NCBI GenBank assembly: GCA_000002445.1
Contig: AE017150.2
Coordinates: 448,001-512,000, forward strand
DNA length: 64,000 nt
Source: Trypanosoma brucei
Lineage: Eukaryota
Reading direction: 5' to 3'
The notes below the pieces were generated by a model that saw nothing but the letters and a program-made list of their open reading frames with translations, did not search any database and was not told the origin of the DNA. The translations under genes were made by a program, and so were the position numbers. Shown one piece after another: positions 1 through 49,928 of this stretch. How positions within the stretch are numbered: position 1 is the stretch's first letter; every line of letters starts with the position of its first letter.

Positions 1-13
1 AGAAAAAGCACAA

Positions 14-32
14 ACACACACACACACACACA
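14..32. repeat. (CA)n dinucleotide microsatellite
   Basis: The run 'cacacacacacacacacaca' is directly visible at the window start. Confidence 0.9.
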
Positions 33-64
33 ATAATAATAGTAATAATAGTAATAATAATAAT
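33..64. repeat. (AAT/AGT)n trinucleotide microsatellite
   Basis: The repeat 'aataataatagtaataatagtaataataataat' is directly visible. Confidence 0.85.
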
Positions 65-97
65 TCGGAGGCTAATGAATGATGATTACTATTATTG

Positions 98-121
98 ATA
101 TATATATATATATATATATAT
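98..121. repeat. (TA)n microsatellite
   Basis: A 'tatatatatata...' run of about 12 units is directly visible. Confidence 0.9.
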
Positions 122-3100
122 CCTGTTCCTCGCCTTCTTATTCTTGTGTCTGTTTTAATCCTCACGTCACCTCAACTTTTTAATTTAACTTAATTTAATT
201 TCCCCCCCTGCCCCACAACAGCGGAAGCAGTGAGACCTGTCTCTAAAAAAAAAAAAGTAAGTTGTAGTTGTTGTTATTTGTTGTGGAAGATCGAATGAAG
301 AGAAAAAGAAGAAGAGAGAAAAAAAAAGGAAAATAAATAAATAAATAAATACATACATACATTTGTGAAAGTGAGAATGTGTGTTAAGATTTCAAAAATG
401 AAAATAACAACAACAGCAACAACAGAGGAATAAACGTTGACATATATGTATATATATATATTGTTTGAAAGAATAAACATGAGATCCAGAGTGGCAATTG
501 CTGTTGACTGGGATTTCATAATGATGAATTGCAGGGAATTTGATGATGGTACACAAAAACTCGAATTCACTGCGAAAAGTAAAGGAGGAGGAGGGGGGTG
601 CGGAAACACGCACACACAAAAAAAAAGAAAAAAAGGAAAAAAAAAAACGGTAGAAGCCGTTGCATAATTTGACAATGGAGAGTCACTAAATGTATCTTTT
701 TCTTTTTTTTGCTTCCGCTTTTGTCATTTTCTTCTGAAAAGCAGATGGTGAATATTAAAAATTAAAAAAAAAACAAAAACAGAAATAAAAATAAAAATAA
801 AAGAGACAAATTAACAATAATAAACAGCCAATAAAAAAGAAAAAAAAGGAACACAAAATAACACTGGAGAAATAAAAATTAAGAAGACACCCACCCAAAC
901 AGGCATTTTAGGGGAAATTGAAGGTAAAATAAAAAAGTAATAAAACGCAAAAAAAAAAAAAGCAAATCAAAACAAACAAAACAACATCAAATCAACAACA
1001 ACAACAACAGGAGGAAAAGAGAACCCAAAATCCGTTTCAAACATAAAAGAGGGTAATTTGTTAAAGCATAACAACCATTAAAAACAAAAAAACAAAAACA
1101 AAAACAAAACAAAAACAACAAAAACGAAAAAAAAAAATGTGCGATGCAACAAATTTTATAAGAGAGTTATAAAATGATCATTAATCCTTCACTGTCATCG
1201 CAATATTTGCTTCTCTGTTTCCTCCCTTTTTCTTTTCTTTTATTTGTTAACCCTAACGGATACATGACATCATATTTTACATTTTGTTGTTTTATTTCCA
1301 TCTCACACGTGTCACTGCCACTCTTTCTTTTTTTTTTTTGAAAAATCACACACACACACACACGAAAAAAAAAGGAAAAAAAAAAAGGAAAACACAACAA
1401 AACATAAAATATATGCAAATGCATATATGCGTAAAGTATATACGACGGAGTTTATACATGATGGATTAAGCAATGACGAAAATAAATAAATATAAATATA
1501 TATTAAAAAAGATAAGAAATGAAAAAGAAAAAAAAATGCTTTTTTTACAACAGAAGGAGAAAGAGGAAGAGGATTAAAACAAAAAACAAAAACAAAAAAC
1601 TTTTATTGCCCACCTTTATTTATTTATTTATCTATTTACTTGTTTATTGTTTTATATTTTTTTTTCTATCGCCTATTCCTCCCCTTCTCAAAAATATTTT
1701 TCCGTGTTGTTTCGTGCTGCTGCTTCATTTTTTTTTCCCCTCTTCTTTTCTCTTTATAATCCTAATCCTAATCTTAATCTTAATCTTTTAAAAAAAACTT
1801 TTCCACAGATTTGATATAACTCTTCATTTCCACTCCATTTATTTCCACCTCATATAAACTTACATTTTGTGTTTCTGTACGAAACAACACCGAATAAAAA
1901 TAAGACAAGAAAAAAAAAAGACAAAAAAAAAGAAAAAAAAAAGAAACAACAACAACAAAAGAGAGCACAGAATACAAAAACAAAGCAGTTAGAAATAAAC
2001 ATACAAATATAAATATCTAAATTAAAATATAAATACAAACACATGAATCCGTAAACAGGGTAAACATATATTTGCAGATGCATTTGTAAATGTAATTAAC
2101 CGCAAATAAGTGAATGAACCACCAAATGGAAAGAGGAATCCCGCATGTCCACTCGTATAATAATAGTGAAAATAATAATAATAATAATAATTATTATTAT
2201 TAAAATTATTAAACTTAAAAATTATTAATATTACCCATCGCACAAATCGGATGAAACACACACTTGCACGATCAGACACACGCCGTGTTTCATAATTGCA
2301 TGAAAACAACAAAATTTTTTTTTTCTAATTTTTATTTTAAATCCCTGCACACACCTGCTTCCCTTTTCCCCCTCCCTTGAGTGCGTTCGTATGCAAATTT
2401 CCTCAAAAATAACAAATTTTGAAGTTATGCACACCCACACCCACACGCACTCGATTCTTTTTCTTTTTTTTTTTTAAAAAAAAAACTTGACTATTCATTT
2501 CGTATCAAAACAACAGCAACAACAACAAAACCCATTTTGAAACGTGTTATGGCATCCGCCTGTTATACATATAAATATAAATAAATATAAATAAATATAT
2601 AAATATATATATAATGGTATATGTTCACACATTCACTTACTCGCAATCTTCCCTCCCCCCCATTTCCATATGAAATCATTTTCTTTCCCACCTCCTTTCT
2701 TTTATGTATTTATATTTATTTATTTATATTTACTACAAATATATATATTTTTAAAAATATACACATAAACACAAATATAAACACACATGTGCTCTTTTGT
2801 TTGTTTGTTTGTTTGTCTTTTTTTTTCTTTTTTATTTTTATTGAAAGCCTCACTAATGCAGAGGCCACCGTATGAAATAAAAACTTTTCATGAACGTAAA
2901 GCAATTAAAAAAAAAAAAGCGCTTGTCATTTGTCACTTCTCTTTTCTTTTCTTTTCTTTTCTTCCTTTTCCTTTTCCCTCTTTTTGCGAAGAGAAAATAC
3001 CTCGCCATTTCTCTTAACATTTATAAAAAAAATGATAATAATTTCCAGTCCACATAATAATGCAAAGAGGAGATATGAGAGGTGAGAGATGAGGGAATAC

Positions 3101-4559
3101 AAGAAAAAGAAAAAAAAACAGAAAAAAAAACAAAAAAAAAACAAAAAAAAACAACAAGAAGACAATATAAGATATAAAATATGGAAAAAATGAATTGTGG
3201 AGAAAAAAGAAAAGAAGAGGAGGAATTCAAGTAATTTCGAGGAATGTTGGTAAAAATCGTGTGGTGAACACAACTGCAAAACATAAACCAAAAAAAAAAG
3301 AAAAAAAACATGTTAATAATATACCCGTCACCACCATAAAATAAGAGAACATCGTCATCAACATCAACATCAACAACAACAAAAAAAGAAAAGAGGTTGA
3401 GGCCAATACAATGTAATGGATGGCGATAATTGGATGAATAAAGGGAGAAGGAGGAAAACACACGACACCCACCCACACATACAAACATATAAATAAATAT
3501 AAATATAAATATAACCACAGATAATCGGCGACAAAAAACAAACACACAAACAAACAAAGAAGGTGCGGAAGACAACCACTCTCCGCATCACATCTTAATA
3601 ATATTAATATTATTAATAATATATTATTGTTGTGATATTTTTTTTCAGAGGGTAAATTGAAACAATAACAAACAACAGACAACCACCACAATAACAAAAA
3701 AAAAAAAGGAAAGAACCAGTGGGTTCGTTTCCCTTCCCGTGTTTAATACCCTTTAGAAATATACCAACATCTCCCACATTATTAATTTATAATGCCCTCA
3801 AACAAACACGATGATCGATGCGAGTTGGAGGGCTTGAAAATATTTCTGTTATTTTTCTTAATTATTAAATTTTGAAGAAGAAGAAGGAGGAACAACATAT
3901 GAAAAACATTTAAGAAAGAGAAAGAAAAGAGCCTCCTCCCCCAAATAAAAAAACAAGAGGAAAAAAAAAACAACAACAAAGCAGAGTGGTAAAATTGTCA
4001 CATCGTTAGTTCCTATTCTTTGACATCTTATTCCCTCTTTTTTTCTTTTTCTTTTGTTTTTTTTCCTTTTTAAATACTTTTCTCCGCGTCTATTCATGCT
4101 GTTAAACTTCCTCTGACTTACGGCCACCACAACAACTTCACGCAACTTTCATATGCACACATTTCTATGAACTCAAATAAGTGTAACATTCAACTATTGG
4201 ATGAATATAACCCATCATTTATGTATACGCATGCATATATTTGTGCAGTGAATATGTGGTTAATGCTGCGACGTGGATGTGGACATGAAACGAAATATTG
4301 CCCAAATAATTGCCAAGGTTACGACATGAAGGTATCTCCCATCCACCCCTCCTCTATTTACATTCACACGCACCTAAACAAAAAAAAAAAAAAAGGACAA
4401 ATAAGAAAGAAACAACAACCTTCTCTTCCTCTCCCTATCCTTCTCTTTTTCCTTTTTTTTTCTCTCCATAAAAACAACAATAACGACAAGAAAAATTTCC
4501 TTGTTAATTTGGTTATTAACATGAGATGCCCTCTGATAATTTAATGTTCTCTAAGATTT

Positions 4560-7500
4560 TTATGTTGACACCGTCATTCCCCCATGTGCCGCTCCATCAG
4601 TGGCCCACTTGGGTACGGTATCTGTAATGATGGCGTCAACTTTCATTCCTTTTGACTGCGCTGCACGAAACCGTTCGCACATGTTCATTTCCCCCCACGT
4701 CCACACCTGCTGTCCCTTTCCATGGGCATAATTCACAATTGTCCTTCCACGAGAACAGTCAAAGTTGGACCAAAATTCATCCATTTTCCTCCCTGAGATC
4801 CCTACGTGGGCTCCATTATCATCATTATCATTATCATTATCTTCACCATCATGTGTGGTGTTCTCGCCTTTACCGTTCGGGTAACTAAAAGTACCTCCGC
4901 GTTCCCTTTCCGCCATGCCTTGGATTTCCTTTAGTTCACCCAACTGCTTGTCTGTGCACAGTGAGGGAGCATGAATAGAGATACCCGAGAGATTCATCAG
5001 TATAGAAAATTGCAATGCGCCTTCCACTCTGCCAAATGAGCGGTAATCCTTAAAGTCATCGCCCAGTTCCGTGTCACACAAATAAACGACATGGTAACGG
5101 CTTTGCTTTAACCTCAGCGCCAGACACACATCAGGTTCGAAGCTGCTGAATATTACATCCCTGAAGCGTTGCGTTTTCCCCCCTAGTCCGTCATCCACCG
5201 AATGTTGCTGATCGGCGAAAGCGAAAACGACCTGTAGAATATCATCCACGAATGCATTTACCTCAAAGGAGTCCGTTTGCAAAAAGAGATTAGCATCTGC
5301 TATTGGTTGGAAAGGAAATTTAACCTCCAGGTCAAAACGCAGGGAGGGCGCGGTGCCTTCGAAGAGGTCCTGCAGCGTGCAGATGCGATTCGTCACATTC
5401 TCCTCTTGGGATATGATACGTTTGTGCTTATTATACGCGCTGATGTAATCATCCACGCTGGGACAGTGATTATGGCACTTTTCGGTCGAGGAGTTGGATT
5501 TATCATCGCCACCGCTTTCTGAGTTGATGTCGGCACATCCCCTAATGGCATGATTACCACCAACGCTGCCGTGTTTTTCTGTGCATTCCTTTGTGCATGG
5601 GACGCAGGTTCCGAATCCTGCCGCTACTTCCACTACTTGATTCGCATGTTTGCACGCCAACTCCTCACGTACCCTATTTCGATAAACACGGAGAATTTGA
5701 TGCCAGTGCTGCAGAATCAAGTTACGCAGCCTGTTCCCTGCTTTAATATGTGTAAATGTTTCAGTGATTACAACATCCAGTTGGTTCTTAGTGAGTTGAT
5801 GCAGCGCGATTGGGACTGAGGAAAACTGTGGCGGATCGCGCATGAACATTTGATACTCTTTAAGTCTTAGCGATTTCCCCGAAGTACTGGCGCCTGCACA
5901 TATGGCGGATTCGAAGCCAGGAGGGGGTTGTAACATTGGGGAATCAGCGATAAAAGATGGGCTGACGCCAAAACCTACGGACTTCTCATCGGGTGGAGAG
6001 CCAAACGAGTTTACACGGCCATTGCGTGTGCCGGCTCCTCGCTTCCCCCGTGCCTGCAGTTGAATGAGCGGATCATGATAAACGATAGGAACGCGATCGC
6101 GGGTGAGCATCACATCGAATTCCACCATGTCACATCCACGACGGTGAGCTGCATTGAGTGACTCCAAACTGTTCTCCGCTAATTTAACCATTAGTTTTGG
6201 GACCTTTGCTCGCTGTCCTGCGCCGCGCTTCGTTGGGCTAGCTCCGTCGGCAACCACAGATTCTGCGTTGGAGGCGAAGGAGAAGTTTTCAACGGGCTCG
6301 ACCGGCCCTCGTGTGTATGTTTTTCCGAGACCGCGATGACCCACGAGTTTTTTTGTCGATAGTCGGCCGCGTGAAGCAACGGATCGGACAATCTCCAGCG
6401 TGTTACGTTCAGGGTTTGCAAAGGGATAGACGAGAAGGTACTGTAAGTAAAGAGTGTGCCAGTGCGCAGTGACGGTGGGTTGACCACTTACGCTATCCAC
6501 AGTAATTTCTGGAAAGCACACAGGCATAACAAGTGTGCCATTTGTACGTTGTTCGAATAGAGGGGGCTGCAGCATTACAAACCCCCTCAACCAACGAATA
6601 CCGGTAACCCCGGTGCTGCTTCCGCATTCAGTGACTTCTGATGCTGCAGGCGGTGTTTCCGTTGACGTTTCCGGTGTGTCGCCTGTTGCGGCGGCGCCTC
6701 TAGATTCAGTGTTCTCTCCTTTAGACTGCGCGTCATTTTTTTTTGACGCCGACTCGGATGGCTTCCTCACCGAAGTGCCACCGTTGCGTTCTTTTTCACC
6801 ATATATGGGTGTGGGCAACATTACTTCCACCTGCAACCCACAACCAGCGAGCAACGCAAGGTTTACAGTTGTGTGCCACATTCGCATTGTGTGTTGTGGA
6901 GCGCCACGAGTCATCGGAGCAACAGGGTCAGCAAGGCGAAGAGGTTCGACACACCAGCCACGCTGAGTGAAGGCGGTAACAGCAGTAACAACATCCTCCG
7001 TCAAACCTTCATCGCATGCAGAAGCACAAGATACAGAGGGTAGACTTGGATATTTTCGTAACGCTGCAACTGGTGTGTTCTGTGACGGTATAGATGGCGT
7101 GTTTCCCACAGTGGTTGACGTTGGTGCTGAAGCGTTTCCCCTCTCCGAGGCCCTCTGTAGGGATAATTGCTTCTTCACCATACGTATCTGCTGTTCCATT
7201 GGTGGCAATGAGGAGACATGGCCTTCACACCAACAGCAACCCTCAGATGGGACGGGATATACGTCACACACCTCAATAATAGTTGAGGGATTAACCACAT
7301 CCCCATTTTCTTGGTCTTCAGGGGAGTTGGAGCGACTTGTGTCCTTCCAACCATTTTCCTCCATGAAGAGTACCGCGTCTCGACTTTTTTTTGGTAAACT
7401 TTCCAGCCACCTTTTCCGATCATACCGCACTCGAGGATCGTTTCCATACATTGACAGTGAGAGATAAGGGGCCCCCCGTGGGTTTCCGTCAGTCGAATTC

Positions 7501-44454: not shown

Positions 44455-45300
44455 TTAAGTGTATAACGTGCGGCGAAAGCGGTGTCTTCGCCTGTGCTCC
44501 CGCCACCAACGCCATCCCAACCCCATTAAAACTCCAGCTCCTAAACCCCCCAAGTGGGCGGCGTGGCCAACAGTTTCGCCAGGTCCCCACCACCACCCCC
44601 ATCCCGTACCTGATGATCCCGATGTGGGTTTTCCCCCGAGTGTTGCGGTAGCGAGTTTGAAGACCTCCAAAGCAGCTGCCATCCACACAGTAATCCAAGT
44701 GCCCCTGTAGGCTGCTCCAAACCCATGAATCGCGTATCCACCAGCGCTGGCTCCACACATGAAGGATGTATCCACCCGGTGCTTTCCCACACTGTACGTT
44801 ACACTACCAACCCAACTGTCAAACTGTGACTTAAGGGTGGAGAAGATACCTTCCTCTTCTTCATGAAAGAAACCGATGAGACCCTTCACAGAGAACATTC
44901 CCTTCCATCTCTTCCACTTCAACTGCGCGTAGTCAAAAAGCAGCTGCCCAGCAACACCGCTGACGCCCCCAATAATGAGAACGGCGGTTGCGCCAGCGGC
45001 CTCCTTGATGCTTTTCCACATGCCGCGGTCCGCTACACCGATCTGAAAGCAATCTTCCCCGAGCTCTAAGAGTGTGCACAATAGCAGCATCACGTTTCCC
45101 ACAAAGTGTTCATCAGAAGCATGCACAAACATATGCGTTACGAGGACAAGCGGGTTACGCTTAAATGCCGAGACGGAAAAGCCATAGTCCTGCACACGTG
45201 CCAGGCACTGAAAAGGAGTTGGCCACTTTCCATCCGCAAAATGGACAAGCAAGCAAATCCATACGGGCGTCAGGCGGATTGCTATGCATGTGGGAATCAT
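44455..45300 (-). CDS. Rhomboid-like intramembrane serine protease family protein
   Basis: The ORF-track start is TTG. The first ATG is at 45298-45300. It has rhomboid hallmarks in order: TM2 'HASDEHFVGN' (HxxxN), TM4 'CGASAGGYAIHG' (GxSx catalytic Ser) and TM6 'AHLGGLGAGVLMG' (catalytic His). There is a Trp/Gly-rich segment 'GTGWGWWWGPG'. Confidence 0.65.
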   Translation of the reverse strand: MIPTCIAIRLTPVWICLLVHFADGKWPTPFQCLARVQDYGFSVSAFKRNPLVLVTHMFVHASDEHFVGNVMLLLCTLLELGEDCFQIGVADRGMWKSIKEAAGATAVLIIGGVSGVAGQLLFDYAQLKWKRWKGMFSVKGLIGFFHEEEEGIFSTLKSQFDSWVGSVTYSVGKHRVDTSFMCGASAGGYAIHGFGAAYRGTWITVWMAAALEVFKLATATLGGKPTSGSSGTGWGWWWGPGETVGHAAHLGGLGAGVLMGLGWRWWREHRRRHRFRRTLYT

Positions 45301-46284
45301 CACCGTCCCTGAGAAGTCACACAAATGCTCCCTCGCAACAATTCACGTCGTCTTCTTCCCGTGCGCCACTCGAGTCGGCGCAGCGCGACGAGTTCCTTTC
45401 ACTTGGCGTGCAATTTAGTAATGAAGCACACCCAAACCCCTAAAGGAACAACAACGGACCTGTTAGGGTAAATGTCCCAGCTCCGTCCCACTGCACGCCA
45501 CCGTTCCTAACCTTCGTTTCACAAAACCCCCTCTTTTTTCCCCCCTCACCAGTATTGAGGCAACTGGGAGACTGACGTAGCCGACAGCAGAGACGGCAAG
45601 AGCTGGTTAGTTGAAGCCTTCACACACGGGTTAACACTGCGCGATCATCAACAACTACAACCTAGTTTCCGTACAAGCACACGAGGCCCACAAAAACAAC
45701 CACCAGACGGTAAGCAAAAGTCAAAGAATGAGAAGAAGTTCGTACAAAGCACTCTGAACGTAGGAAAAAACATGGAAGGGAAGGCAGTAAAGCAAGAAAA
45801 AAAGTGCAAAATGCGGGCGGCCACGCTAGACCAAGTAATTGTGTCAACACACAGATGCTAAAGTGAACAATCAAAAGACACTAGAAGAAGTGTGGGATGT
45901 GTTCACAGGTAACAGTCGAACGACAGAGATGAAAGGAAAACAAACGGATCAAAGGATGAAAAGTGGAAAGGCGAGAGGCGAATAGGGATTGTTGGCTCCC
46001 TCTTCCCAGGTGGCGAAAACATGTTCACTTAAAGTCTTTTTGACTTTTTCTACACCGTACTAGAACCCCCTTTAACTTAACCAGTAGCCATATAAAGAAT
46101 CATATATTAAAATACCTACAATCTGCTACAGCCGAAGAGTGAAGCAGTACAACAGACACGATTATATTTATGTCCACGTGACCCAACGCAACAGCAGAAA
46201 AGGGGGAAAAGCTGCTTAAGTCGAGCAGTTAACGGTGCGCAAATTGACACAGGCACATCAACTGCAAAGATCAGCATGTTCGCT

Positions 46285-47097
46285 CTACGAATGGGTAATA
46301 AGGACACCGGGTTTGAGGCTCTTATCCACTGTCACCGCAACAGTCCAGTTATCAATGAGTTTCGCAATATACACTGCTGCCCATTCAAGTTTCTTGTTTA
46401 CACGCGCCTTGAGCACGTTGCCCTTCACCAGAACACAGTCTGCTTCCACACCAACAACACCTGTCCATGGCTGGCCACGTCCGCACACAACCTCAGCACC
46501 AACAACGACACGATGGGGGCACTTTGGCACACGAGCAGTGATACTGGTGGTGTATGTGTTGAGTTTATTTGTGCGGACGGCTGCCGTGTAACCGCAGCGC
46601 GCGTAGCGGCACGAAGCAGTCCAATCACAGTTGCCTTTTGCTCCCAAATTGTAGAGAGCACCGCAGCCAACGCTGCAGTATGGCCCGATAGCTGTACCAG
46701 CACCAACTTCCAACGTTTTTTTCGTCAGTTTTTCATGCAGGGAAAGGAGACCCTGAAAGTTTCCTTCATGGCTCACCTCGTAGTTCCCATTTTTGTTCAC
46801 CACACCCTCAATTTTGTGGCCTTTATAGTGGTACGTCACAGTTCCAGTGACATTTGAGGTAGATGTTGCGTACGTGCCCTTCAAGGCCGCACCGCACTGA
46901 CTGATCGTATATTCCAGATCTGTTGAAAATGCGCCATCGGATGTGACGGTGGGGTTCAGGATGAGTTTATCCTTGGGACCTTTGAACTTGGACTCCAGTT
47001 TCCACTTTTGCGCACTGCTGTAGTTCTTTGTCAGTAGGTCTTTCGCATCCTTGTGGTAGTCCTTATACAGGACGAGGGATTTTGCAGGTGCAAACAT
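46285..47097 (-). CDS. VDAC: Mitochondrial outer-membrane porin (VDAC)-like beta-barrel protein, tandem copy 1
   Basis: 270-aa ORF with ATG confirmed at 47095-47097. Alternating polar/hydrophobic beta-strand periodicity runs throughout ('GTVTYHYKGHKIEGVVNKNGNYEVSHEGNFQGLLSLHEK...'). The size fits VDAC. I recall a tandem VDAC pair in T. brucei. The protein is identical to the ORF at 47601-48413. Confidence 0.6.
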   Translation of the reverse strand: MFAPAKSLVLYKDYHKDAKDLLTKNYSSAQKWKLESKFKGPKDKLILNPTVTSDGAFSTDLEYTISQCGAALKGTYATSTSNVTGTVTYHYKGHKIEGVVNKNGNYEVSHEGNFQGLLSLHEKLTKKTLEVGAGTAIGPYCSVGCGALYNLGAKGNCDWTASCRYARCGYTAAVRTNKLNTYTTSITARVPKCPHRVVVGAEVVCGRGQPWTGVVGVEADCVLVKGNVLKARVNKKLEWAAVYIAKLIDNWTVAVTVDKSLKPGVLITHS

Positions 47098-47226
47098 CCT
47101 TGTAACGGAAAGTTGTTTGAATAATAAAGAATATTAGCTAGTGACGATAAGGGTGTGGTAAAATAGATGGAAAGGGGGAAACGAGAGGCTTGAGCGACAG
47201 GTCACACGACAGGTGTAAGAAGTCAT
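46286..47226. repeat. Tandem duplication unit 1 (CDS plus ~130 bp upstream), ~99-100% identical to 47602-48546
   Basis: The supplied ORF translations on both strands are identical for the two copies. Identity begins immediately adjacent to the stop codon and ends at '...caggtgtaagaagtcat' upstream of the ATG. The period is about 1316 bp. Confidence 0.85.
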
Positions 47227-47600
47227 GTGGAAATAATTTGTATTGCGTGTCCACATGTGTACCTTACGTAACTGTGGACCAACGTAGTCGTAATAAAGGG
47301 CTGAATTCCTAATTGCTAAGTTTGCACGGTAAATACAATGCGCGTTTATACATATAGATGCTGCTAAGTGTTTTTGCCCCCCGGGCTTCCATCCCCCCTG
47401 GCAGAGCTGCCGATACAATCCATCCTAACGCTCGATAAAACATAGGTGGAAGCTCGACGAATACCCACCCTATTATTGGCTCCGTTCTTGTCCATGTTAC
47501 CCAACTTTGGCGGTAAATTGCTGGTACACCGAAAACGAACAAACAAACAATAAAAAAATACGTTCAAAGAAAAAAAAAATAAAGTAATATAGTAAACGAT

Positions 47601-48413
47601 CTACGAATGGGTAATAAGGACACCGGGTTTGAGGCTCTTATCCACTGTCACCGCAACAGTCCAGTTATCAATGAGTTTCGCAATATACACTGCTGCCCAT
47701 TCAAGTTTCTTGTTTACACGCGCCTTGAGCACGTTGCCCTTCACCAGAACACAGTCTGCTTCCACACCAACAACACCTGTCCATGGCTGGCCACGTCCGC
47801 ACACAACCTCAGCACCAACAACGACACGATGGGGGCACTTTGGCACACGAGCAGTGATACTGGTGGTGTATGTGTTGAGTTTATTTGTGCGGACGGCTGC
47901 CGTGTAACCGCAGCGCGCGTAGCGGCACGAAGCAGTCCAATCACAGTTGCCTTTTGCTCCCAAATTGTAGAGAGCACCGCAGCCAACGCTGCAGTATGGC
48001 CCGATAGCTGTACCAGCACCAACTTCCAACGTTTTTTTCGTCAGTTTTTCATGCAGGGAAAGGAGACCCTGAAAGTTTCCTTCATGGCTCACCTCGTAGT
48101 TCCCATTTTTGTTCACCACACCCTCAATTTTGTGGCCTTTATAGTGGTACGTCACAGTTCCAGTGACATTTGAGGTAGATGTTGCGTACGTGCCCTTCAA
48201 GGCCGCACCGCACTGACTGATCGTATATTCCAGATCTGTTGAAAATGCGCCATCGGATGTGACGGTGGGGTTCAGGATGAGTTTATCCTTGGGACCTTTG
48301 AACTTGGACTCCAGTTTCCACTTTTGCGCACTGCTGTAGTTCTTTGTCAGTAGGTCTTTCGCATCCTTGTGGTAGTCCTTATACAGGACGAGGGATTTTG
48401 CAGGTGCAAACAT
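47601..48413 (-). CDS. VDAC: Mitochondrial outer-membrane porin (VDAC)-like beta-barrel protein, tandem copy 2
   Basis: ATG confirmed at 48411-48413. The 270-aa product is identical to copy 1. Confidence 0.6.
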   Translation of the reverse strand: MFAPAKSLVLYKDYHKDAKDLLTKNYSSAQKWKLESKFKGPKDKLILNPTVTSDGAFSTDLEYTISQCGAALKGTYATSTSNVTGTVTYHYKGHKIEGVVNKNGNYEVSHEGNFQGLLSLHEKLTKKTLEVGAGTAIGPYCSVGCGALYNLGAKGNCDWTASCRYARCGYTAAVRTNKLNTYTTSITARVPKCPHRVVVGAEVVCGRGQPWTGVVGVEADCVLVKGNVLKARVNKKLEWAAVYIAKLIDNWTVAVTVDKSLKPGVLITHS

Positions 48414-48546
48414 CCTTGTAACGGAAAGTTGTTTGAATAATAAAGAATATTAGCTAGTGACGATAAGGGTGTGGTAAAATAGATGAAAAGAAAGGGGGAA
48501 ACGAGAGGCTTGAGCGACAGGTCACACGACAGGTGTAAGAAGTCAT
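47602..48546. repeat. Tandem duplication unit 2
   Basis: Matches 46286-47226 except for a small indel ('aaag') near 48487-48492 in the upstream flank. Confidence 0.85.
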
Positions 48547-49928
48547 TATTTATGCAGTGTGACAATTTCCGTTGGCCGAACGGTCCCAACTGTTCTCGAC
48601 AAGCGTCCTCCGAGTGTTATCTGTTGAATGTACAAAGGTAATCTGGCACCGAATAGTTGATTGGCGAGTAGACGGCACTGCATTGCGTGATCTGGGAGCG
48701 CCGCACCGGAAGTGGGCTCAGGCACAAACTGCGAGGTGCCGCGGCACATTTTTGCTATTGCACCGATTTGAAAGGAACGAACTCATTGGGGGGGGGGCCG
48801 TCGAGAACCTTGCGATATAAGGTGGAGCTTTCGGGCGTAAAAGCTGCTAATGTGCAGTCACCCATACGAAAAAAAATAAAAAATAAACCACCCTTTTTGC
48901 CTCACAAGTATGTTCAAATCGGCAGAAAGTCGGGGACTAAACATGCACCACCGAAAGAACGCACACGATCTTCATAAAATCAGTGGTGTCATCATCCCAC
49001 CCATCTTTCTGCAGTACAAGTAATGGTGGTGGAAGAGATGATGGTAGCGTCACTTTAAAGTAGAAGCGCTATTTAGTTCCGTCGCGAGCTAGTGTGAAAG
49101 TAAAAATACAAAAGGATCATGTGAGTATTCAAGTCCCGACACTCACGTTGGGCACACATGTCTGCGGCATCTCCAGTACTTTTTCCCCATCAAAACAACA
49201 CCCATCTTCGTGCGCCGACGCGCGGGCGGAAGCACATCTAAGAACATCACGCGTTTGTGTGTTTGTACGCAATACGGCGTGCACGTGAGTGCCGAATGAA
49301 AGAAACTTCAGAAAGGATAAGGGGCACAAAGGAATCATTGCAGTGAATAAAACAAAAAAAAAGAGTAATGATGGCAGATGACATTTTGTGGGTGTGAGAC
49401 GAACAGGGCAAGAACTAAAAAAATAAAACGGGAAGGATCGTTACCCCCGCGTTGGAGTCGTATGGTGTGTATGTTTGCTCTTAATAATAAGTACCACAGC
49501 CGTTTGGACACTTACCCAAACAGTCACGGCCGCTGAACTTCCATGTAGTGAGACCATCACGCCTTCCTGTGGGTCCACTTCCCTTGTTGAAACCGTTCTT
49601 AATGTTAGTAGCCTGAATACATTCTAACGTGCGGGCACGCAAGAGCGAGAAAACAAAACATCTTCCGCGAAACAACGTTGCCCGCAGCTCGTGGTGCACC
49701 CGTAGCGCAAACCAACAAACAGTGCGCATTTAATAATTTGGACAATTGCCACATGCGCTAGTCAAGCATATACGTAAACAACCGCAGCATGAACCAATCA
49801 ACCATGCCTCTTGATGACTAAACACATGCGAAGCACTCGAGCAAGCAGTTTACCGGTCCTCGCGTATTCATTGAGGCAGTGCCGGGGCTGTGATCGATAC
49901 CGTTCTGATGAAACTTCAACTGTGAGCC

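Follow-up and report, generated by a model that had tools for sequence, protein, structure and literature searches.

How does a trypanosome come to hold two adjacent genes that encode the same protein in the same DNA but end in unrelated 3′ sequences, and do the different ends matter? The question is raised by a 64-kb stretch of Trypanosoma brucei chromosome 2 (the window; its positions convert to chromosome 2 coordinates of TREU927 by adding 448000), which carries two such genes on its minus strand. The locus is best explained as the annotated pair of tandem genes for VDAC, the porin of the outer mitochondrial membrane of T. brucei, located in one minus-strand polycistron of chromosome 2. We put the probability of this explanation, taken as a whole, at roughly 0.8, and a differential regulation of the two copies is graded apart from it. 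Tb927.2.2520 is the upstream, first-transcribed copy and Tb927.2.2510 the downstream one, the identifiers being assigned through the coordinates in Table S4 of Kolev 2010 (PMC2936537). The locus is identical to the annotated VDAC: identifiers, splice coordinates and poly(A) coordinates agree to the base, and no structural difference was found. An earlier note on this DNA, made from the sequence, had offered the pair as a discovery, which it is not, as the genes are already annotated (VDAC1/VDAC2) with mapped untranslated regions (UTRs); the structure is already known and the locus itself adds little. The sole new lead is a pair of RBP10-type motifs present only in the 3′UTR of Tb927.2.2520, together with a copy-specific behavior in single-cell RNA sequencing (scRNA-seq), and this lead can be tested with existing data.

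Identity of the Encoded Protein

The protein matches the Pfam family PF01459 (Porin_3) over residues 10-255; its score of 28.9 bits (E 1e-6) clears the cut-off of 28.4 by a narrow margin. It is 100% identical to the annotated VDAC of T. brucei and T. equiperdum. Neither the protein nor a 15-sequence profile matched any PDB entry at the sequence level, so that a fold search was needed. The AlphaFold (AF2) model, built from 15 homologues, has a predicted local distance difference test score (pLDDT) of 86.5, an N-terminal helix at residues 16-23, and 19 strands. Foldseek searches with this model retrieved human and mouse VDAC1 with template modelling (TM) scores of 0.84-0.85 and root-mean-square deviations (rmsd) of 2.4-2.7 Å, the values for human VDAC1 being 0.85 and 2.4 Å. 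Tom40 also matches the model (TM approximately 0.8) and ranks close behind VDAC1, and therefore the fold alone cannot separate VDAC from Tom40. The earlier assignment to a VDAC-like porin is thus borne out by the Porin_3 match, the complete identity to the annotated protein, and the VDAC1-like 19-strand barrel taken together, and the DNA does come from a trypanosomatid, as that note assumed. Both gene identifiers are given as VDAC in PMC6027440, PMC9799330, and PMC6648352, one study writing them as “Tb927.2.2510-2520”. According to the summary in PMC9799330, Pusnik 2009 and Singha 2009 reported from experiments that the protein acts as a metabolite channel of the outer mitochondrial membrane. 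In the published VDAC work examined, the two genes are handled as one unit and copy-specific 3′UTRs are not discussed.

Structure of the Tandem Repeat

The listing of open reading frames (ORFs) contains two on the minus strand, at 46285-47097 and 47601-48413, with identical translations of 270 amino acids (aa), and the two coding sequences (CDSs; 813 bp each) show 100% DNA identity, as had been claimed. Base-by-base comparison indicated that 46284-47169 equals 47600-48485 without any break at an offset of 1316 and that, past an indel of 4 nucleotides (nt), 47170-47226 equals 48490-48546 at an offset of 1320. For the downstream and upstream copies, the repeated block accordingly comes to 943 and 947 nt, respectively, and it consists, in gene orientation, of 129 nt (downstream) or 133 nt (upstream) of 5′ flank, the 813-nt CDS, and a single nucleotide past the stop codon, in agreement with the edge at the stop and the approximately 130 bp of 5′ flank described previously. 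On the base comparison, 943 identical bases cannot be the product of chance. The sole difference within the block is a TTTT at 48486-48489, found only in the upstream copy and lying inside the polypyrimidine tract; the description of the copies as “perfectly homogenised” consequently holds for the CDS and the 40-nt 5′UTR but not for the 5′ flank. The unique spacer between the blocks occupies 47227-47599 and is 373 nt long, which corrects the 375 bp (47227-47601) reported before. Past their stop codons, the two copies differ in sequence, as had been noted, and cannot be aligned except for one 17-nt patch. The antisense ORFs of the two copies are indeed identical too; because the DNA is identical, this is a trivial consequence and no independent evidence.

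Every ORF in the window that reaches 200 aa lies on the minus strand, which indicates a single polycistronic unit, and the VDAC copies stand head-to-tail on one strand within it, as members of a tandem array do. Tandem Repeats Finder reported nothing relevant close to the VDAC locus.

Transcript Map of the Two Copies

In trypanosomes, polyadenylation is coupled to downstream trans-splicing. As expected from this coupling, the poly(A) site of Tb927.2.2520 precedes the splice acceptor of Tb927.2.2510 (47137) by 171 nt, and that of Tb927.2.2510 precedes the major acceptor of the rhomboid-like gene Tb927.2.2500 (45687) by 126 nt. The next acceptor is thus that of its own paralogue for Tb927.2.2520 and that of the rhomboid-like gene for Tb927.2.2510, and position in the array alone provides identical proteins with 3′UTRs of 293 and 472 nt. 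The mapping of Kolev 2010 shows identical 40-nt 5′UTRs and distinct 3′UTRs of 293 nt (Tb927.2.2520) and 472 nt (Tb927.2.2510) in unrelated sequence, confirming the different 3′UTRs proposed by the earlier note; the two copies do not use the same downstream polyadenylation region but two separate mapped sites. The features of the array, in the direction of transcription, are the following (window coordinates; chr2, chromosome 2):

48454-48546, minus strand: repeated 5′ flank and polypyrimidine tract of the upstream copy, with the extra TTTT
48414-48453, minus strand: 5′UTR of Tb927.2.2520, 40 nt; major trans-splice acceptor at 48453 (chr2 496453; Kolev Tables S4 and S12), with AG immediately upstream
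47601-48413, minus strand: CDS of Tb927.2.2520, 270 aa; ORF with Porin_3 match and 100% identity to annotated VDAC
47308-47600, minus strand: 3′UTR of Tb927.2.2520, 293 nt, unique sequence; major poly(A) site at 47308 (chr2 495308; Kolev Table S13)
47227-47307, minus strand: unique intergenic stretch from the poly(A) site of Tb927.2.2520 to the repeated 5′ flank of Tb927.2.2510
47138-47226, minus strand: repeated 5′ flank and polypyrimidine tract of the downstream copy, lacking the TTTT; splice signal setting the poly(A) site of Tb927.2.2520
47098-47137, minus strand: 5′UTR of Tb927.2.2510, 40 nt, same sequence as that of Tb927.2.2520; acceptor at 47137 (chr2 495137; Kolev Tables S4 and S12)
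46285-47097, minus strand: CDS of Tb927.2.2510, 270 aa; ORF with the same DNA as 47601-48413
45813-46284, minus strand: 3′UTR of Tb927.2.2510, 472 nt, unique sequence; major poly(A) site at 45813 (chr2 493813; Kolev Table S13)
44455-45324, minus strand: rhomboid-like Tb927.2.2500, next gene downstream; weak Pfam Rhomboid match (E 0.012), Kolev Table S4, and synteny

The splice-site reads of Kolev 2010 (Table S4) number 1375 and 62 for the two copies. A reading of these counts as unequal expression was rejected, as the reads fall in sequence that is identical between the copies.

Conservation of the Array and Evidence for Concerted Evolution

Related trypanosomes show comparable arrangements, with spacers of 364-504 nt across species:

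T. cruzi: 4 copies in three assemblies; block of 117 nt of 5′ flank, the CDS, and 45 nt of 3′ sequence; period approximately 1311 nt
T. rangeli: 2 copies, 97.8% identical; block of 128 nt of 5′ flank, the CDS, and 77 nt of 3′ sequence
T. grayi: at least 2 copies; approximately 65 nt of 5′ flank; a 364-nt spacer leads to the second copy, which is identical over the 62 nt present before the end of the contig
T. theileri: 1 copy, and a partial copy on another contig

In T. cruzi, the internal spacers are alike, the terminal 3′ flank is different, and a rhomboid-like gene follows the array; such a gene also adjoins the array of T. rangeli, so that the VDAC-rhomboid synteny is conserved. The same repeat-spacer-repeat architecture and the same neighbor in T. 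cruzi and T. rangeli, together with the second copy in T. grayi, give good support to the view that the array is old. At the protein level, the paralogues of the syntenic locus are 96-100% identical within species and 59-72% between species; being more alike within than between species, they indicate concerted evolution. The 3′ edge of the identity block lies 1 nt (T. brucei), 45 nt (T. cruzi), or 77 nt (T. rangeli) past the stop codon, and this variable edge is better explained by drifting ends of conversion tracts than by a fixed duplication breakpoint. Gene conversion or unequal crossing-over is therefore probably the process that keeps the block alike within each species, the 3′ flanks lying outside the homogenized tract, and the main benefit of the array is probably the dosage of a very abundant mRNA.

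The perfect identity of the two CDSs had been taken to imply ongoing gene conversion. Homogenization does fit best with the within- and between-species identities, but “ongoing” is an overstatement in view of the two synonymous differences between the copies of T. b. gambiense and the 18 nt and 12 aa that separate those of T. rangeli. The two synonymous variants are distributed one per copy in T. b. gambiense and occur together in one Logan contig, where assembly effects are possible. Several points weigh against concerted evolution of an old pair. No conversion event was observed directly. The 0 differences in 943 nt within TREU927 are barely below the 1 in 813 that distinguishes the T. b. 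brucei and T. b. gambiense orthologues, and the identity in TREU927 alone thus cannot date the last homogenization. Sensitive blastn comparisons of the spacers and terminal 3′ flanks of T. brucei, T. cruzi, T. rangeli, T. theileri, and T. grayi returned low-complexity matches only, so that the ancestral pair is deduced from architecture and synteny and not from orthologous spacers. Finally, three of the four T. cruzi copies have one 3′UTR in common, which points to dosage, and not to UTR diversification, as the main driver.

The differences between the T. rangeli copies (4675-5496 and 6001-6822) are clustered at residues 73-80 and 150-199. This could mean that homogenization in T. rangeli lags far behind that in T. 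brucei or T. cruzi, or else that a functional divergence of the copies is under way.

The one patch shared by the 3′ flanks of T. brucei, GTTGGGTnACnTGGACA, is found at nearly the same distance from both stop codons (+96 and +98):

47489-47505, minus strand: 17-nt patch GTTGGGTAACATGGACA, 96 nt past the stop of Tb927.2.2520
46171-46187, minus strand: 17-nt patch GTTGGGTCACGTGGACA, 98 nt past the stop of Tb927.2.2510

In a stop-anchored diagonal test, a choice made post hoc, its score was attained in 3 of 5000 shuffles; when the two 3′UTRs were aligned locally without an anchor, the result was not significant (66 of 1000 shuffles). The patch hints that the 3′ flanks may once have been duplicated too; it may be what is left of a UTR that both copies once had in common, or else a regulatory element that both use.

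Copy Number and Age of the Pair

Two other histories could produce the same picture, namely a mis-assembled array whose true copy number is one or far above two, and a recent duplication without gene conversion. The locus is evidently hard to assemble from short reads, as the T. equiperdum OVI assembly holds a single chimeric copy (5872-6814) that joins the upstream flank of Tb927.2.2520 to the downstream flank of Tb927.2.2510, the T. grayi contig breaks inside its second copy, and a Logan assembly contains a stand-alone 959-bp contig. The chromosome 2 locus of T. b. gambiense DAL972, in contrast, is colinear with the window (98.98% over 12.4 kb) and holds two copies whose block boundaries and copy-specific 3′ flanks agree with those of TREU927, each copy bearing one private synonymous single-nucleotide change; each unique 3′ flank of T. 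brucei has its own mapped poly(A) site; read depth in Lister 427 2T1 corresponds to 2.51 copies (Antwi 2016, Table S1); and three T. cruzi assemblies, on contigs of 196-575 kb, resolve four-copy arrays. The copy-number and synteny check suggested by the earlier note thus speaks for a real pair, and the assembly-artefact explanation is largely refuted and receives hardly any credence from us. A recent duplication would have copied a segment of about 945 nt (5′ flank and CDS) into the upstream intergenic DNA, the identity reflecting youth and the spacer being the old upstream intergenic DNA. The block edges are sharp on both sides with unalignable sequence outside, and the CDSs in TREU927 show zero differences, both as expected from such an event. 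Against it, the same architecture, spacer length, and downstream neighbor recur in species whose VDACs are 59-72% identical, so that an equivalent duplication would have had to arise independently four or more times; the 3′ boundary varies by species; the 17-nt patch occupies like distances in both 3′UTRs; and the pair is older than the split of T. b. brucei and T. b. gambiense. This history is accordingly very improbable, and an old pair homogenized within species is preferred.

Assemblies or read depth put the number of copies at 2 to 2.5 for T. brucei, at 1 for T. equiperdum, and at 4 for T. cruzi. Like the distribution of the two synonymous variants, these figures are suggestive of conversion or unequal exchange, but assembly effects are possible. 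Some haplotypes with three copies are possible, and the single copy of T. equiperdum is either an assembly collapse or a real product of unequal exchange. More generally, short-read assemblies mishandle the array, as seen in the chimeric T. equiperdum copy and in the T. grayi contig that stops 62 nt into the second copy (7178-7239). The 959-bp Logan contig (ERR7929164) carries a VDAC CDS 99.6% identical to the window copies followed by a 3′ flank of the Tb927.2.2520 type, and its positions 1-115 are an unrelated T-rich flank with AAGCTT upstream of position -36, a break that follows the mapped splice acceptor by 5 nt. This flank is absent from the window and could derive from another genomic context, another strain, or a construct.

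Copy-Specific 3′UTRs and Possible Regulation

The UA(U)6 motif UAUUUUUU occurs twice in the 3′UTR of Tb927.2.2520, at 47581-47574 and 47560-47553 (+20 and +41), and a scan of the 3′UTR of Tb927.2.2510 detected none; this pattern of two and none is kept in T. b. gambiense. The motif occurs only 10 times in sense orientation across the window, and the Poisson probability of two or more in 293 nt is estimated at 0.001-0.006, in a test chosen after the motifs had been seen. UA(U)6 is the motif of RBP10, carried by mRNAs of the procyclic type, which are kept repressed in the bloodstream stage (PMC6648352). In the S2 Table of Mugo & Clayton 2017 (PMC5568443), VDAC mRNA is enriched 3.16-fold and 2.88-fold in the RBP10 pull-down and is flagged as higher in procyclic polysomes. 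VDAC therefore resembles the RBP10 regulon in the two motifs of Tb927.2.2520, the enrichment of 2.9-3.2-fold, and the higher procyclic polysome occupancy; it differs in falling just below the cut-off of that study (at least 3-fold in both replicates), in having its copies merged, and in the motif-free 3′UTR of Tb927.2.2510. At the protein level, VDAC is approximately 5-fold higher in procyclics, with the copies merged, as the review PMC9799330 reports from Singha 2009.

The copies can be told apart in the data of Briggs 2021, obtained by 10x 3′-end scRNA-seq with unique reads only and extended 3′UTRs. Among the rows listed, Tb927.2.2520 belongs to module G (p 3.7e-7), and modules F-I peak late in slender-to-stumpy differentiation. 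In the rows listed of the table comparing wild-type and ZC3H20 knock-out cells, the lineage Wald value is 24.9 for Tb927.2.2520 (p 0.0016) and 0.90 for Tb927.2.2510 (p 0.999). The authors do not comment on this difference, which comes from one dataset. Some caution is due here as well: the meanings of the columns were taken from tradeSeq conventions, the low value of Tb927.2.2510 could result from low counts, and the RBP10 enrichment is modest and comes from reads on the CDS common to both copies, which it merges.

The closest functional analogue of the VDAC pair is TCTP1/TCTP2, described by Jojic et al. 2018 (PMC5992589) as a tandem pair with identical 5′UTRs, near-identical ORFs, and drastically different 3′UTRs, conserved across trypanosomatids and with paralogues more alike than orthologues. 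The VDAC pair has the same composition, with the same 5′UTR and ORF in both copies and mapped different 3′UTRs, and is even more uniform, its ORFs being identical whereas those of TCTP differ by 10 nt and 5 aa. The likeness is structural only: for the TCTP 3′UTRs, unlike those of VDAC, northern blots and chloramphenicol acetyltransferase (CAT) reporters have demonstrated that they suffice to restrict expression to the procyclic or to the bloodstream form. Jackson 2007 (PMC1855330) described arrays that are head-to-tail, with a (nearly) invariant CDS, a curtailed or different terminal UTR, and paralogues clustering by species, and the VDAC pair shares the orientation, the invariant CDS, the different terminal UTR, and the species-wise clustering. 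However, that survey covered arrays of more than three copies (per PMC2854126), which places the VDAC pair outside it, and in its invariant arrays the terminal UTR is generally a shortened form of the internal spacer, whereas the identity of the VDAC copies stops 1 nt past the stop codon.

The default explanation of the array is dosage. In its pure form, in a genome without gene-specific promoters, duplication only doubles output, the two mRNAs are alike, and the 3′ flank of the last copy is an edge effect without regulatory meaning. VDAC mRNA is among the most abundant (approximately 63 RNAs per cell in procyclics; Kolev Table S6), Jackson 2007 presumes dosage to be the purpose of arrays and finds other UTRs routinely in terminal copies, T. 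cruzi has multiplied the internal unit to four copies, three of them with one 3′UTR, and bulk studies handle the two T. brucei genes as one. The confinement of the two UA(U)6 motifs to one UTR and their retention in T. b. gambiense, the different behavior of the copies in 3′-end scRNA-seq, and the TCTP1/2 precedent for a functional use of exactly this arrangement argue in the other direction, and we regard pure dosage as an evenly balanced proposition. No copy-resolved experiment on the stage regulation of the two VDAC copies was found in the literature. Copy-specific regulation by the distinct 3′UTRs is plausible but unproven, and the odds that the VDAC copies are also differently regulated lean slightly to the negative side. 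Under such regulation, Tb927.2.2520, with two RBP10-type elements in its 3′UTR, would be the developmentally induced copy and Tb927.2.2510 the more constant one. A specific division of labor can be proposed tentatively, with the odds somewhat against it. RBP10, acting through the two UA(U)6 motifs that lie within 50 nt of the stop codon, would hold Tb927.2.2520 down in slender bloodstream forms; this copy would then be induced in stumpy and procyclic cells, where the mitochondrion becomes active, with Tb927.2.2510 and its motif-free 472-nt 3′UTR supplying a constant baseline. If true, conversion ending at the stop codon would keep one protein under two regulatory programs.

The principle of the same protein under different 3′UTRs has already been shown experimentally in T. 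brucei for TCTP1/2. Transcriptomics based on the CDS is blind to separate copies, which bulk tables merge or report as “#N/A”. A copy-specific regulation of the main mitochondrial metabolite channel could be read from existing data through the reads in 47308-47600 and 45813-46284, and the pair offers a clean natural test of the share of the RBP10-type element in the approximately 5-fold procyclic up-regulation of VDAC.

Other Features of the Window

Upstream of the array lies a 1.4-kb gap (48547-49928) that contains the novel transcript Tb2.NT.17 of Kolev 2010, with its acceptor at chr2 497305 (window 49305). Three of the 10 sense-strand occurrences of the UA(U)6 motif are found in this gap, at 49425, 48885, and 48878. 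At the other end, positions 1-4000 of the window, downstream of the last large ORF in the direction of transcription, have an unusually low GC content (28-30%) and are A-rich on the plus strand. Short A-rich tandem repeats are present there at 1080-1137 and 3104-3165.

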